From positions 64,001-120,796 of the IMG/VR virus record IMGVR_UViG_3300042261_000652: 56,796 bases of DNA, one strand, 5' to 3'. Position 1 is the stretch's first letter, and each line of letters opens with the position of its first letter. Below the pieces are notes generated by a model. The model was not told the DNA's origin, made no database searches, and saw nothing but the letters and a program-made list of their open reading frames with translations. Positions 33,391 to 49,578 of the stretch are shown one piece after another. This DNA comes from a virus. Both the position numbers and the translations under genes were made by a program.

Positions 33391-33867
33391 ATGATCAAAT
33401 TAAAGTCATTAATTGAAGAAGAAAATGATTACGACCCCGCATGGGATTATAATATTCATAAAAATCCACCACGCAAACTAATAAAAATTGTCGATAATAT
33501 TATAAAATCCAACTCCATAATAAAATTGTTGCAAATATTAAAACTTAACTCTCCCCGAATTTCATATATAAAAGATAATAAAAAGGAAGCTCTTGCCAGA
33601 TATATCACGGGTACTGCAAATTTTCCACATATTGTTATAGATATGGACACGATACAAGCGGCAGTCAAAGCAGACCCATCTAATATAGGATATGCTATAG
33701 AGTCCACTATAGTTCACGAACTTATTCATGCATACCTTGAAACACGTGGGTTAGATCCATCGGAACACGACGAAGATGCCGTTGAGGGTGCTACACAAGA
33801 GTATATGGATTTCAGAGATCCCGCAGACATAATACATTCTTTACGGATATCATATCCATATTTATAA
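33391..33867 (+). CDS. MIKLK-leader protein with HExxH zincin-type metallopeptidase motif
   Basis: 'MIKLKSLIEEE'; 'IVHELIHAYLE...EHDED'; ATATTTATAACTTGAT box directly upstream. Confidence 0.6.
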   Translation: MIKLKSLIEEENDYDPAWDYNIHKNPPRKLIKIVDNIIKSNSIIKLLQILKLNSPRISYIKDNKKEALARYITGTANFPHIVIDMDTIQAAVKADPSNIGYAIESTIVHELIHAYLETRGLDPSEHDEDAVEGATQEYMDFRDPADIIHSLRISYPYL

Positions 33868-33873
33868 CTTGAT

Positions 33874-34218
33874 ATGATCAAGTTGAAAAAATTAATCGGC
33901 GAAGTTTTACTAAAGGGTAAAGATTTCATGGTATTAGGAAGAATAGATGATGATTGTAATATAGATTCTCTGTGGACTAAAAATACCGAGACCAATCACC
34001 ATCAAATTGTTGGAAAAACATCTCCGTTTCACTCTTATCATTGGCGGTATAATAGCATAGACAATAAAGTTGGATGGTGGATTGATGGGAAAATAGTATC
34101 ATCTGATAATACATTCAAAATATATATATATGCTGTAGATCAATTTTTATTAGATCGCTATCATATAAGCGAGCCAGAACATATATCGATATATGATACG
34201 CCGATAAGATATCGATAA
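33874..34218 (+). CDS. MIKLK-leader protein (114 aa)
   Basis: 'MIKLKKLIGE'; the same ATATTTATAACTTGATATG upstream box as the 33391 gene. Confidence 0.55.
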   Translation: MIKLKKLIGEVLLKGKDFMVLGRIDDDCNIDSLWTKNTETNHHQIVGKTSPFHSYHWRYNSIDNKVGWWIDGKIVSSDNTFKIYIYAVDQFLLDRYHISEPEHISIYDTPIRYR

Positions 34219-34231
34219 TAGGAATAATATA

Positions 34232-36058
34232 ATGATTTCATTTGCTAAAATGATGCGAGACGTTCTCTTAGAGAGAATGAGTTTTGGACAATTGTATGGT
34301 AGAAGCGAGTATGGGCGTAGAAGCCGAGGTAATTCCGACGTTTCTCCAAATTCTACACAGGTGACTGCCACGGATACGGGTGAAGCGTGGTCATTCAATT
34401 ATAAATCAAATCCCTCAACTACAGGTCAGCGGTGGCACGGGTTCATTCAATTCTTTAAAAATGACGTTTCCCGCAAAAACAGAGCAGATGAGTTGGATTG
34501 TATGATAGATTGCGATTGTCCTGATTATAGATACCGCTATGCTTATAATAATGAAAAAGCGGGTGTAGGATGGACGGGAAAGCATCCCGAGTGGAAATAT
34601 AATAATCAAAATAATGGTCAGAAATGGAAACCCAGAAGTCAGGGTGGAGTTGGAAATTATGGTGTTGGGTTGTGTAAACATTTATGTAGTTTACGGGATT
34701 ATCTTAGAACTGTGATTGAGCCTAATGCTCCAGATCCCGATGATGAGATTCCACCGGCTGTAAAGACAAAGAAAGTTCAGCGATCACAAGTTCCGGTTTC
34801 TCAGAAACCTGCTACAACAAAAGCGCCGACGCCTGACGATAGTTATTCGGACAGTCGTTCGGGTTCGGACACTCTTCAAGAAAAAATACAACCGGTTTCT
34901 TCAATATATAAATTGATGGATAAATTTGTAAAAACTCATCCGACGTTTATGATTCCGGATTATGATTCTAAATCTGTAAATGAAACCGAATCATTGCAAG
35001 AAGCTCATAGTCGGGGAGAATGGTGGATAGATGAAAGTGGAAGTACAATATTTGCCGACGGTAATGTTGGAGAGTCTAATCACGAAGCGGTGGTTATTAC
35101 ATCTATAGCACACGAGATTTTATCTCATTTTGGTATTGACGTGGACGATGCGGGAACCCTTGGGGAGTATGAAGACAACATTAAAGAAACCTTAATAGAT
35201 GATGATCGTTTAAGTGAAGATGAGATTGCTCAGTGGGATCGCAACGCTTTATCTGTTATCGTTACTAAATTAATAGAGGATAAAGCATTTGGAAATGGCG
35301 ATCTTAAACAGACCCAAGATGCCGTGCATCTCGCATATGGTAACACTTTCCACGATGCTCGGGATTATGCAATGCAATATTGGCGATGGAAAGTAATGAA
35401 AACACATGGGGGTGAAATAGAAATACAAACGTGGCATCTTACCCCCGATGATCTGGGAATTATTGTGCGTGGAGTGTGGGATATTATGGAAGAGCCTGAC
35501 GAGGATGATGATTCCGATAGCAATATTGGCGAGGATGGTTATCCCGGGCCTCGTGTTAATGTAACGGTTCAAGCATCGGGCAAGCGATTTTCCGATATTC
35601 CACTGGCAGTTCTTGAAAAGAAGATGCCACAAAATCTTCACAATTATCAGAGCGGTGTTCACGTAGGATATACAGAATCTATCACAGAAGAATTTCATCA
35701 TCTTCATAAGGAATATAGACTTTATGAAGGAAATAGACATATTATTGCATTATTTGAAGATGGAACCCGCTTGAAATTTGAAATACATTTCCGTGATAAG
35801 CATGGCCCGGACAGAGAGAAATGGCGGCATAGAGCTTTTACTACGTGGAAATCCGTTGCTAATGAAATTCGCAAAGCATCGGAAGAACTGGATGAAGTTG
35901 GGAATTCAAATCCAAAATCGTGGAGATCGTGTTTTAAAGAAGCACTCGAAGATCCTCGTATGAAGGATTATATGCGCAAAAATTCACATCGGCGGATATT
36001 TGATAATAAAGAAAATGCGCCTATATATGACCCCGTGAATTTTACACGGATGGGATAG
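34232..36058 (+). CDS. Hypothetical protein (608 aa) with CxC...CxH (SWIM-like) Cys/His cluster
   Basis: 'MISFAKMMRDVLLE' leader-like N-terminus; 'DCDCPDY...GLCKHLC'. Confidence 0.5.
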   Translation: MISFAKMMRDVLLERMSFGQLYGRSEYGRRSRGNSDVSPNSTQVTATDTGEAWSFNYKSNPSTTGQRWHGFIQFFKNDVSRKNRADELDCMIDCDCPDYRYRYAYNNEKAGVGWTGKHPEWKYNNQNNGQKWKPRSQGGVGNYGVGLCKHLCSLRDYLRTVIEPNAPDPDDEIPPAVKTKKVQRSQVPVSQKPATTKAPTPDDSYSDSRSGSDTLQEKIQPVSSIYKLMDKFVKTHPTFMIPDYDSKSVNETESLQEAHSRGEWWIDESGSTIFADGNVGESNHEAVVITSIAHEILSHFGIDVDDAGTLGEYEDNIKETLIDDDRLSEDEIAQWDRNALSVIVTKLIEDKAFGNGDLKQTQDAVHLAYGNTFHDARDYAMQYWRWKVMKTHGGEIEIQTWHLTPDDLGIIVRGVWDIMEEPDEDDDSDSNIGEDGYPGPRVNVTVQASGKRFSDIPLAVLEKKMPQNLHNYQSGVHVGYTESITEEFHHLHKEYRLYEGNRHIIALFEDGTRLKFEIHFRDKHGPDREKWRHRAFTTWKSVANEIRKASEELDEVGNSNPKSWRSCFKEALEDPRMKDYMRKNSHRRIFDNKENAPIYDPVNFTRMG

Positions 36059-48083: not shown

Positions 48084-48089
48084 AATCCA

Positions 48090-48521
48090 TTATATTTCTG
48101 GAGAAAAGAGAATGATTGGCCGAGGGGGACCGAACTTTGAACTTACCCATCTCTGCCAAATAATACTTTTACCTTTATCTTCAAAATACCAATTTTCTAA
48201 TACTTGTTTTTGCGCTTTGGTTGGTTCATTTCCTTCAACAAAAATCTTATTATTCCACGGAACTTTTATGACCCGCAACCATCCTTTTCCAAATGCTTGT
48301 TCACACATTATGGCGGCAGCATCATCATAATCTTCAACCGGTTCTTTAAAAACCCGTTTTACTAAAGCATTGCTTACTCCGAATAAGGAATTATTATTAG
48401 CAACATATATACCGTGTTGCACATCGTCCGTATCATACACAGTTCCATCCCTTTCCAACCAGATTAAAGTCGCATTTATGTCATCGAGAGCTTCCCGCAA
48501 TAAATTTTTTAATTTAATCAT
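48090..48521 (-). CDS. MIKLK-leader protein (143 aa)
   Basis: 'MIKLKNLLRE'. Confidence 0.55.
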   Translation of the reverse strand: MIKLKNLLREALDDINATLIWLERDGTVYDTDDVQHGIYVANNNSLFGVSNALVKRVFKEPVEDYDDAAAIMCEQAFGKGWLRVIKVPWNNKIFVEGNEPTKAQKQVLENWYFEDKGKSIIWQRWVSSKFGPPRPIILFSPEI

Positions 48522-49129
48522 ATATTAATATTGTTGATTGGCGGTAATGTAAATTCAAAATCGGAAGTAATTTTAGATGGATCTATGACTGAAACTTTTT
48601 TTATTATATTGGGGCGGAATATAATTAGACACATTTCATCACCGCTTTGTTTCTCTATCTTGGAGTCTCCTCCCTTGCTTATAAAATAATTTGCAACGGC
48701 TATTCCCACTTTTCCGGCTCCGCTTCTAAAATTTACGATCAAATTGTTCAATATATCGGCTCCGACTGTATCGGAACGCATCCGCTCTGCATTTTTCTTC
48801 AATGCATCTATGATTTCAGCTTTGTGCCTCATTCCGCCACAATTCTTGACGAACTCGATAAGTTCAGATAACAGAATGTGGACTTTATCTAAAGGAGTGA
48901 AATTTCTATCAATATCTACCAAATGAACAACTCTACTTCCCTTAGCATACCGTCTAGCGATATAATAATCATTAGTCATATATATTCCGGGGCCAGCTTC
49001 GTATCTTCCTTCCTTGCTTCCCAATATTTCGGTAGGTATCCGTGACCAACGCTTTCCCCCGTGATACATTCTAAATGTATTGTCGTTCTCACCGTTTTCT
49101 GATAAAATTAATCGTTTCAGTTTAATCAT
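48518..49129 (-). CDS. MIKLK-leader protein (203 aa) with 'YHGG' variant motif
   Basis: 'MIKLKRLILSE'; 'FRMYHGGKRW...GIYMTNDYYIARRYA'. Confidence 0.55.
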   Translation of the reverse strand: MIKLKRLILSENGENDNTFRMYHGGKRWSRIPTEILGSKEGRYEAGPGIYMTNDYYIARRYAKGSRVVHLVDIDRNFTPLDKVHILLSELIEFVKNCGGMRHKAEIIDALKKNAERMRSDTVGADILNNLIVNFRSGAGKVGIAVANYFISKGGDSKIEKQSGDEMCLIIFRPNIIKKVSVIDPSKITSDFEFTLPPINNINI

Positions 49130-49578
49130 TTGACATCACGTTCTTTAATATATTCGGGTTTAAAAGCCATAGAATTAATCATCGCATGATCTGCCGGGGT
49201 CCAATCAGGAACTCGTTTAAAGTTACTTCCTGTAAAAATTAATACGGGAACAGTATCAATTCCCAATTCTTTGGCAGCAATTGCACGGTGTCTTCCTTCG
49301 TGACCAATTACTTTTTTTCTTTCGACATCCACTTCCAGAACTAAAAAATCAGTTGGCAACCCCCGCTTGAATCTATCTTTTAATGCGTTTTTTATAGTAT
49401 CAAATTCTTTTCGCTTTTTATATTCTTCGGGGAGTGGATTGGCCAATTGCAAAAATTTATCAGGAGACATCCAGACAATCTTTCCTTTCCACCCCTCCAT
49501 TCCTCCATAAGATTGTATCTCGGAGCCTTTTGCCAAGGGATAATCGAACTCATGTACTAATTGTCTTAATTTAATCAT
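49126..49578 (-). CDS. MIKLK-leader-variant protein (150 aa) with ParB/sulfiredoxin-like nuclease-fold motif
   Basis: 'MIKLRQLVHE'; 'VIGHEGRHRAIAAKELGIDTVPVLI' matches the ParB N-domain pattern 'GhHRl.AakelGl..vP'. Confidence 0.55.
   Translation of the reverse strand: MIKLRQLVHEFDYPLAKGSEIQSYGGMEGWKGKIVWMSPDKFLQLANPLPEEYKKRKEFDTIKNALKDRFKRGLPTDFLVLEVDVERKKVIGHEGRHRAIAAKELGIDTVPVLIFTGSNFKRVPDWTPADHAMINSMAFKPEYIKERDVK

Follow-up and report, generated by a model that had tools for sequence, protein, structure and literature searches.

Why would a phage begin thirteen otherwise unrelated proteins with the same ten residues? The question arises from a stretch of IMG/VR virus record IMGVR_UViG_3300042261_000652 (positions 64,001 to 120,796 of the record), which we call the window: 56.8 kb in all, with 37% G+C, about 60 genes and no tRNA genes. 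It covers the structural gene region of a myovirus related to T4, and 13 of its open reading frames (ORFs) carry a leader with the consensus M-I-K-L-K-x-[LI]-[LIM]-x-E, starting at 33391 and 33874 on the plus strand and at 37012, 42709, 43374, 44386, 45106, 46114, 47422, 48083, 48521, 49129 and 49578 on the minus strand. An earlier note on this DNA had listed these leaders and taken them for signals that direct proteins into the virion and are then removed by a prohead protease. All 13 were found where the note had put them, and its reading gains support from the positions shared with a T4 signal, from matching sites in head proteins, from synteny in relatives, from fusion junctions and from the kind of cargo. 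We consider it likely that the leader M-I-K-L-K-x-L-L-x-E does for this lineage what the capsid-targeting sequence (CTS) does for T4, as a propeptide of the type processed by gp21.

The leader peptide and its distribution

When the window was translated in six frames and scanned with the expression.IK[LM][KQLR].[LMI][ILMV].[ESG], 13 matches were obtained, each at most 8 residues from an ORF start, with no match apart from the 13 leader ORFs. The leader opens the protein in 11 of them, as had been claimed for all, although a short extension precedes it in MKTKTSRK-TIKLKSLLES (ATG at 43398) and MP-IIKLKKLLSE (ATG at 46120). The claim that Glu always stands two residues after Leu, Ile or Met also holds in part: Glu occupies position 10 in nine of the 13, although MIKLRQLVHE has V-x-E, and in the other four leaders [LIM]-x-E is displaced to positions 4-6, 7-9 or 9-11. 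In both predicted models (those of 46130-47422 and 49126-49578) the leader is unstructured, with a predicted local distance difference test score (pLDDT) of 31 in one and about 50 in the other, the latter having a low-confidence short helix at residues 3-7. The 10 kb upstream of the window contain no further leader genes.

At each conserved position the Ile, Lys, Leu and Glu codons vary synonymously among the 13 window copies; it is therefore the peptide, and not the DNA, that is conserved. The degenerate DNA pattern ATGATHAARYTNAARNNNYTNHT had nine matches in the window as against none in 100 dinucleotide shuffles, and all but one of these are leader genes. The exception, at 54042, belongs to a 13-codon ORF (54042-54083, plus strand) that reads MIKLKRLLKLSEL before its stop codon and lies out of frame within gene 53066-54382; it is probably a chance occurrence rather than a leader gene, a relic being possible. 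Once the leaders were removed, pairwise BLAST of the 13 bodies gave nothing better than an expectation value (E) of 0.016. Three simple explanations were ruled out: a DNA-level repeat by the varying codons, a paralogous family by the unrelated bodies, and a secretion signal by the absence of a hydrophobic core, the ground on which the leader had already been judged unlike Sec and Tat signals.

We scanned IMG/VR exactly with a degenerate 30-nt leader pattern and retrieved at least 120 contig stretches. Among those listed there are 166 complete leader ORFs, up to six of them in tandem, and without the leader these fall into 109 body clusters, 85 of which are singletons. Within this set M1 and I2 are present in 100%, K3 in 98%, L4 in 99% (165/166), K5 in 92%, [LI]7 and [LIM]8 in 99% (165/166 each) and E10 in 93% (154/166), and no position is conserved from residue 11 on. 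Synonymous codon use is free at every conserved position here as well. Homologues of the structural genes of the window occur in 51 of the 120 listed loci, 47 loci have at least two leader ORFs, and the closest relative among the listed stretches is a 369-kb contig (L033). The major capsid protein (MCP) of the window is nearest to those of Flavobacterium phage immuto (57%), a 484-kb uncultured phage (49%), Microcystis phage Mel-JY01 (49%) and Rhodothermus phage RM378 (36%), and by this similarity the phage is among the "Far-T4" phages, whose predicted hosts are Bacteroidetes. Judged from sequence, the leader is clade-wide across a large uncultured Far-T4-like group rather than private to this genome, and the clade probably infects Bacteroidota.

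A different explanation would be that an A/U-rich, Lys-rich start (ATG ATT AAA TTA AAA) promotes translation initiation in a host that does not rely on Shine-Dalgarno sequences, the peptide itself having no role. Indeed, we did not find any Shine-Dalgarno-like sequence upstream of the 13 leader genes, the leader codons are AT-rich, and the probable Bacteroidota hosts, indicated by the Flavobacterium and Rhodothermus phages nearest in MCP and by the Far-T4 host prediction, would fit. However, the A+T content of third positions over the 166 listed ORFs is barely higher in the leaders than in the bodies (0.84 vs 0.78), and the leader admits CTC, CTG, AAG, ATC and GAG codons without a change of amino acid, L7, L8 and E10 included. 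The motif is also maintained away from the start, as in MKTKTSRK-TIKLK, MP-IIKLK, MANIKLK and the internal HITLKSLLRE of homologue P0017, and only 13 of the roughly 60 window genes have it, the highly expressed MCP and scaffold genes not being among them. We regard a role in translation initiation as very unlikely.

In T4 the CTS is MKTYQEFIAE, its residues 4 and 7 serving mainly in targeting and residues 8 and 10 in processing, and gp21 cuts after L/I-x-E (PMC9026906). The conserved leader positions 4, 7, 8 and 10 coincide with these functional positions, which supports the CTS reading.

The same site in head proteins and at fusion junctions

The proteins predicted to be substrates of the prohead protease contain this motif throughout the clade. 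The gp21-like protease that the earlier note had placed at 13016..14749 (plus strand) is a member of the T4 gp21 family (Peptidase_S77, E 2.5e-21), a match that is restored by splicing out an intein: a LAGLIDADG intein interrupts the gene precisely after GELDHPE and before SSVVNL, two stretches that follow each other directly in the intein-free proteases of relatives, where the sequence reads GELDHPESSVVNL; the exteins are residues 1-82 and 437-577. Near its N-terminus the protein has KKLLME followed by CITFE, and clade-wide the protease keeps LL[IM]E at this place, resembling LIE-9 of T4 gp21. The gp23-like capsid protein was likewise correctly predicted: the MCP gene is found at 27791..29566 (plus strand; phrog_138, E 8e-66), with a predicted maturation site AKQLIE then ES at residues 57-61. 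Throughout the clade the MCP has the motif QL[LIV]xE followed by [AS], 15-20 residues before WSGVALPLVRR, at the point where gp23 is cut during maturation. The gene that immediately precedes the capsid gene (26247..27758, plus strand) has no family match, and we infer its product to be a gp22-like scaffold from its position, its conservation in 20 loci and its density of [LI]xE sites (2.8 per 100 residues vs about 1.1 elsewhere); it starts with ..LLKE then AIADAK, and LLKE followed by A is kept across the clade.

Relatives that share this head module (large terminase, portal, protease and MCP 45-65% identical) often have leader genes inside it. They lie between the protease and the scaffold or MCP genes in L099, L039, L107, L024, L102, L016 and L060, and in L099 the order is protease, four MIKLK genes, scaffold and MCP. 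A conserved head-module protein of the window (24213..24884, minus strand; homologues in 22 loci) has an N-terminal extension and a degenerate copy of the leader, FTLKRIVEN, and its relatives start with MIKLKDLLKE, MAKLKDLLGE, MKLKDLLNE or MANIKLKDLLNE. In the nearest MCP relatives, the homologues of this protein have other N-termini.

The boundary at Glu10 is also visible where leader bodies have become parts of larger proteins. We took homologues of 46130-47422 and 49126-49578 from a collection of 5.8 billion proteins and found these bodies in three states: with this leader, with another leader, or fused within longer proteins. Where leader bodies are aligned inside longer proteins, the junction coincides exactly with the end of [LIVM]xE in 13 of 46 cases (28%; background 1.9%) and is at most two residues away from it in 28 of 46 (61%; background 9.2%); the 46 cases cover at least a dozen body families and are not all phylogenetically independent, so that P-values overstate the significance. 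In P0018, for example, SILAE precedes KTLYHGTT, the start of the body of 47415-48083, which in the window reads MIKLKKLLLE then KTLYHGTT. Similarly, in P0003 TTLDE precedes LEYPLATG, corresponding to the body of 49126-49578, where the window has MIKLRQLVHE then FDYPLAKG. The window protein 46130-47422 is itself a fusion, with an internal SINE followed by EHYAGEH and a second body from residue 301 (coordinate 46522); in P0022 and P0023 this C-terminal domain is a separate gene with its own leader, P0022 starting with MIKLKDLIRE then NGDYKGEH. P0017 has an internal leader-like copy (...PIKE, then HITLKSLLRE), and multi-domain fusions among the homologues include P0003, P0009 and P0016-P0018. Distant homologues carry other short leaders that end in a hydrophobic residue, any residue and Glu (Phi-x-E), such as MKYLEIIRE before A, MRFQDLFE before S and MTPKFDNLIKSILE before D. 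Since homologous bodies start exactly after E10 when the protein sequences are compared, cleavage would fall directly after Glu10, and the prohead protease probably cuts fused polyproteins into separate effectors at internal Phi-x-E sites.

The junctions also bear on the possibility that the leader has no function at all, being either a relic of a duplicated ancestral 5′ end or a homology patch for the swapping of cassettes. The leader genes do stand in tandem, their block resembles a hypervariable cassette array, and in T-even phages it is established that a CTS-coding sequence is common to diverse internal-protein genes. On the other hand, the codons vary at every position, which makes the DNA too diverged for homologous exchange, and a neutral relic would neither hold Glu10 at 93% over 109 unrelated body clusters among the listed ORFs nor leave Phi-x-E at fusion junctions after the leader has decayed. 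A functionless leader is hardly credible on these grounds; cassette exchange is compatible with a functional CTS and could be a by-product of it.

Under the reading of the leader as a CTS-type propeptide, we propose the following course of events. The 13 genes, situated in a structural and presumably late region, would be expressed late, and the amphipathic leader, hydrophobic at positions 1, 4, 7 and 8, would dock each protein onto the scaffolding core during prohead assembly. The S77 gp21-family protease would then cut after Glu10 of L-[LI]-x-E, as it would cut the same motif in the capsid protein, in the scaffold and at its own N-terminus. The mature enzymes would remain beside the DNA inside the head and, once ejected into a new host cell, would be active before phage gene expression.

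Several observations weigh against this proposal. The 13 leader genes of the window are outside the head module and flank the tail-fiber module, with the capsid gene about 4 to 20 kb upstream. Most of the window cargo is acidic (pI 4.3-6.3), unlike the basic internal proteins of T4, and in relatives the leader is found on enzymes rarely seen as virion proteins (CCA-adding, NUDIX, RNase T-like and NT5C), which comes close to what the earlier note had named as telling against packaging, the leader on obvious non-virion proteins. The resemblance of MIKLKxLLxE to the MKTYQEFIAE of T4 is one of pattern and not of residue identity, making the leader an analogue and not a member of the same sequence family. 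Among the 120 listed loci, 43 have neither a second leader gene nor a recognizable structural homologue, and some of these may be chance matches. We did not find a cultured carrier: megablast of the leader block against cultured phages and tblastn of the 430-aa cargo against phages gave no match, and in scans of the nearest MCP relatives the leader was absent from immuto (3/4 genome segments, 150 of 160 kb) and from the head-module regions of Mel-JY01 and LR756508. To these must be added the partial dependence of the junction cases on one another, and the fact that packaging, cleavage and ejection of the leader proteins are all read from sequence, what happens at the protein level included.

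Some of these points would fit a tag or propeptide meant for another destination (the tail, the baseplate, the neck, a phage-made compartment or a host machine), with Phi-x-E being incidental or serving another protease. The 13 genes flank the tail-fiber module (37029-40736), adjoin the neck gene (50863-52041) and lie outside the head module, the cargo of relatives includes metabolic or RNA enzymes, and the closest listed relative is the 369-kb contig L033. Huge phages can build intracellular compartments. Against another destination stand the many relatives whose leader genes have the protease gene on one side and the scaffold gene on the other, the recurrence of L-[LIV]-x-E at the predicted MCP maturation site, the retention of Phi-x-E at fusion junctions, and the fit of the leader to the functional positions of the T4 CTS; nor does the leader have the hydrophobic core that secretion would need. 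We find another destination improbable, and keep to the proposed packaged, protease-cut propeptide in what follows.

Cargo folds and neighboring genes

The leader genes form two blocks around the fiber module, whose 1235-aa fiber-like gene spans 37029-40736. The genes of the minus-strand block are closely packed into an operon, with some overlaps, at whose head stands a NUDIX-phage lysozyme fusion without a leader (49583-50863, minus strand), next to the neck/adaptor gene at 50863-52041 (phrog_211, head-tail adaptor). Searches of Pfam, PHROGs and NCBIfam gave nothing significant for most of the 13 proteins, and PDB sequence searches with single leader proteins gave nothing useful. The cargo that had been announced for this locus comprised three YHGT-motif enzymes, an HExxH peptidase and a ParB-like protein; an ADP-ribosyltransferase (ART) fold and ParB-like folds are borne out, and the others stay below threshold.

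The best-resolved protein is the product of the ninth leader gene (46130..47422, minus strand; MIKLKDLLSE, 430 aa), with an N-terminal domain, a Tpt1/KptA-like ART-fold domain, a disordered linker and a ParB-like C-terminal domain. Its homologues have a precomputed PF01885 match, and in a PDB profile search all seven matches were Tpt1/KptA, though weak (E about 0.05). The AlphaFold2 model has a pLDDT of about 90 over residues 10-300, and the top 15 Foldseek matches are all Tpt1/KptA (E 6e-4 to 1.5e-2), followed by cholera and pertussis toxins, DarT, ParT and PARPs, a ranking that places the protein in the ADP-ribosyltransferase superfamily. YHGT is at residue 156, within the NAD-site motif LYHGT, and H157, R180, R194 and R219 are invariant in alignment A2 of the family. 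By the modeled fold and the LYHGT motif, the protein is a Tpt1-like enzyme of the ADP-ribosyltransferase superfamily; its N-terminal domain is unrelated to the N-terminal RNA-binding lobe of Tpt1/KptA. The C-terminal domain is ParB-like, a homologue (P0037) having PF02195, and P0021, distantly homologous to the Tpt1-like cargo, is fused to NUDIX. The thirteenth protein (49126..49578, minus strand; 150 aa, MIKLRQLVHE then FDYPLAKG, GHEGRHR motif) has, according to its AlphaFold2 model (pLDDT 76), a ParB/sulfiredoxin fold, the top Foldseek matches being ParB, Srx, Noc and KorB (ParB_N, E 0.026). Its homologues carry the same leader or others.

Three further minus-strand genes have ART-like features that are suggestive only. 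The tenth (47415..48083, 222 aa, MIKLKKLLLE then KTLYHGTT) may encode a Tpt1-like ART, with an NCBIfam match to RNA 2′-phosphotransferase at E 0.0014 and an hhalign match to the Tpt1-like profile at E 2e-4 and a probability of 47%. The twelfth (48518..49129, 203 aa, MIKLKRLILSE) matches ART-PolyVal in Pfam below the cut-off (E 0.0068). The fourth (41963..42709, 248 aa, MIKLKRLMESE) has a VYHWTT motif and matches phrog_13493 (E 0.0025) and Tox-ART-HYD1 (E 0.12); a leader-bearing homologue, 47% identical, is found in the 369-kb contig of L033. The fifth gene (42706..43398, 230 aa), whose leader MKTKTSRK-TIKLKSLLES begins 8 residues in from the ATG at 43398, has an LYHGTP motif.

On the plus strand, the first leader gene (33391..33867, MIKLKSLIEE, 158 aa) has an HELIH motif and sub-threshold matches to Tox-MPTase3 (E 0.018) and SprT-like (E 0.028; E 0.02-0.09 over Tox-MPTase/SprT) together with phrog_1233 (E 4e-5), and its product is possibly a zincin-like metallopeptidase. 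The second (33874..34218, MIKLKKLIGE, 114 aa) encodes a small WRY...W domain, which recurs in the two C-terminal repeats of the eighth protein (weak BLAST, E 0.045). The latter (45113..46120, minus strand; MP-IIKLKKLLSE, 335 aa) looks GNAT-like by eye in its N-terminal part and has a leader-bearing homologue, 44% identical, in L115, a locus in which the eleventh gene (48090..48521, minus strand; MIKLKNLLRE, 143 aa) also has a leader homologue (71% identical). The other minus-strand carriers are the third (36062..37012, MIKLKYLLSE, 316 aa; Amidase_6 at E 0.037 only), and the sixth (43400..44386, MIKMQDLILE, 328 aa) and seventh (44396..45106, 236 aa), both known as ORFs with a leader, which in the seventh is the degenerate MIKLLEIING with L-L-E at 4-6. 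Between the two blocks, a 608-aa protein (34232..36058, plus strand) without any family match in library scans begins with MISFAKMMRDVLLE then R, possibly a variant leader, and has a homologue in L033.

In relatives the leader is found on an M23 peptidase with tail lysozyme, a complete CCA-adding enzyme, a Zeta/P-loop kinase with NT5C phosphatase, DUF5661 with RNase T, and Mom, NUDIX, GNAT, PAP2, SprT-like and MPTase-PolyVal proteins. The leader-tagged CCA-adding enzyme is at L079 4363-5796, and the P-loop kinase with phosphatase, reminiscent of Pnkp, at L023 1846-3063. It is speculative, but these two and the Tpt1-like protein might form an RNA-repair set, a pre-loaded answer to host defenses that cleave tRNA.

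Other N-terminal motifs were observed in and around this locus. Eight tandem genes within 18878-23626 (plus strand), which directly follow a radical-SAM-like gene (18878-19966; Pfam E 0.0015, phrog_7293 E 6e-74), share the N-terminus MK[IT]R[NT]xFVSNSSSSSF and then continue with unrelated sequence; they start at 19972, 20301, 20680, about 21050, about 21550, 21992, 22474 and about 23024, and had no Pfam match. The array may consist of an enzyme and its multiple substrates, or represent another type of tag. A further amphipathic motif at the N-terminus, KKLVKQCIAEVITE and KQLIKECIVEVLTE, is present on 16510-16824 and 16830-17240, with a copy in the middle of 10592-12151. In relatives (L060 4375-5025, L003 6148-6774, L011 8120-8686, L102 2847-3470 and L024 1564-2364) it takes the forms KLKELLRKLIKKEMEE followed by A and KLREIIRTLVKEI and marks a conserved gene after the portal-adjacent gene, which may be a gp67/68-like core protein or the bearer of a second leader type. 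MISL-type N-termini (MISLRRMVES, MISLLELMHSAE, MISLLEIAKGIKE and MISLKSLIKH), which may be a variant of the leader, recur on head-module genes, including those of MIKLK-less relatives: 12148-13011 and 24926-25264 of the window, L107 4413-5387 and L125 (Mel-JY01) 21745-22470. In an unrelated phage-like contig (L128, ENA ERZ27313263 k141_113545, 48% G+C; also L130), about ten genes begin with M[RK]xxE[IL][ILF]E[DA], for example MRYHEILEDIS, MRIQELFEDGS and MKYLEIIREAI, and the carriers include two ART-PolyVal proteins and one homologue of the Tpt1-like cargo. By its form this motif looks like another lineage-specific Phi-x-E leader.

The structural genes begin with a large terminase containing an intein-like insert (3244-6258, plus strand), followed by a T4 gp20-like portal with an intein/HNH insert (6322..9501, plus strand; phrog_213 E 2e-63, Portal_T4, Intein_splicing), a component of the clade-defining head module. 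Selfish elements are abundant in the head module, with intein or homing-endonuclease inserts in the terminase, portal and prohead protease, and two free-standing homing endonuclease genes (14803-16491 and 29713-31548) adjoin the protease and capsid genes. The first leader gene is closely preceded by an ATP-grasp gene of the R2K clade (32532-33368, plus strand; Pfam R2K_2, E 2e-4). At the far end, an ORF running off the window (56299-56796, minus strand) consists of tandem repeats of MMQKSQKLRGLQEMHLL, and no contig encoding 54385-55983 was found on record.

Injected effectors and known systems

A broader claim, on which we are evenly divided, is that the leader is a zip code, readable from sequence, for head-packaged and co-injected effectors of an abundant Far-T4-like clade, that the protease doubles as a polyprotein processor, and that other lineages use leaders of their own on homologous cargo, such as M[RK]xxE[IL][ILF]E in L128. 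If so, the leader would define more than 100 unrelated cargo families, among them ART/Tpt1-like, ParB-like, peptidase, CCA-adding and kinase-phosphatase proteins, possibly amounting to a pre-loaded RNA-repair and anti-defense kit, and injected arsenals could be mined from metagenomes by the leader alone, those of uncultivable phages included. Proteins co-injected with DNA act before phage gene expression and are therefore prime candidates for first-strike counter-defense; the ADP-ribosyltransferase-like, ParB-like, peptidase and RNA-repair proteins would be candidate enzymes of anti-defense or host takeover. The ten residues might also offer a new handle for loading foreign proteins into the capsids of Bacteroidota phages, and the junction rule suggests that prohead proteases process effector polyproteins. 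Only a handful of injected proteins are known in T4, and here the leader tags 13 proteins in one genome of a widespread uncultured aquatic phage group.

T4 is the closest parallel. Its highly diverse internal proteins share, as in other T-even phages, only the CTS-coding sequence, and one of the packaged proteins, Alt, is an ART (PMC5512222). Both tags are N-terminal, about ten residues long and carried by unrelated proteins; both have M1, Phi at positions 4, 7 and 8 and Glu at 10, ending in L/I-x-E. The phage of the window also encodes a protease of the S77 gp21 family, a putative scaffold resembling gp22 and a gp23-like capsid protein in which this site recurs. The likeness to Alt extends to the ART fold of 46130-47422, and the gene set is as hypervariable as in T-evens. 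There are differences, nonetheless. Thirteen or more carriers lie in one 16-kb stretch here, compared with about 4 to 6 in T4, so that the earlier estimate of an order of magnitude more was too high, the excess being about threefold (13 vs IPI-III, Alt and gp67/68). The cargo is of 12-48 kDa, mostly acidic and largely enzymatic, whereas the T4 internal proteins are small and basic; the leader, unlike the T4 CTS, tolerates short N-terminal extensions and internal sites in fused polyproteins; and it spans a large uncultured Far-T4-like clade known here from its DNA, whereas the T4 CTS was found by genetics.

The cargo itself recalls the polyvalent proteins that Iyer, Burroughs, Anand, de Souza and Aravind (2017, PMC5512222) described in phages and conjugative elements and in which P1 DdrB-like ParB domains are found. 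ART, ParB-like, zincin-like metallopeptidase, Zeta toxin, SprT-like, Mom, NUDIX and peptidoglycan hydrolase domains are common to polyvalent proteins and to the leader cargo of the window and its relatives, and for both, delivery along with the DNA is predicted. However, a polyvalent protein has 2-15 disparate domains in one polypeptide, and most window leader genes encode one or two. Here the domains are mostly split into small genes with a leader each, the only fusion of the window being the ART and ParB-like protein 46130-47422, and the predicted processing enzyme is the prohead protease, cutting at Phi-x-E, rather than the embedded MPTase of polyvalent proteins, which are usually MuF- or portal-adjacent and are not tied to a ten-residue tag.

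In the giant phages phiKZ, 201phi2-1 and SPN3US, a diverged homologue of gp21 processes many proteins of the head interior, cutting after Glu at a short motif (compare PMC5694885 and PMC7411985). These phages are large, as are the leader relatives (contigs to 369 kb), but their motif is S/A/G-x-E and their propeptides are long and non-uniform, a uniform ten-residue leader not having been described for them, and their capsid lineage is only distantly related to that of the leader phages. Outside viruses, the cargo-loading peptide of encapsulins is a short conserved peptide that directs unrelated enzymes into an HK97-fold shell; but it is usually C-terminal, is left in place by proteases and fills a shell other than a virion, so that the comparison goes no further than analogy.

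A full-text literature search for MIKLK returned unrelated papers only, and the Far-T4 papers mention neither a leader nor internal proteins. That T-even internal proteins share a CTS, and that giant phages process head proteins after Glu, was known already; what this locus adds is another tag sequence, its spread over a large uncultured clade, 13 carriers within 16 kb, a mainly enzymatic cargo and the junction rule.

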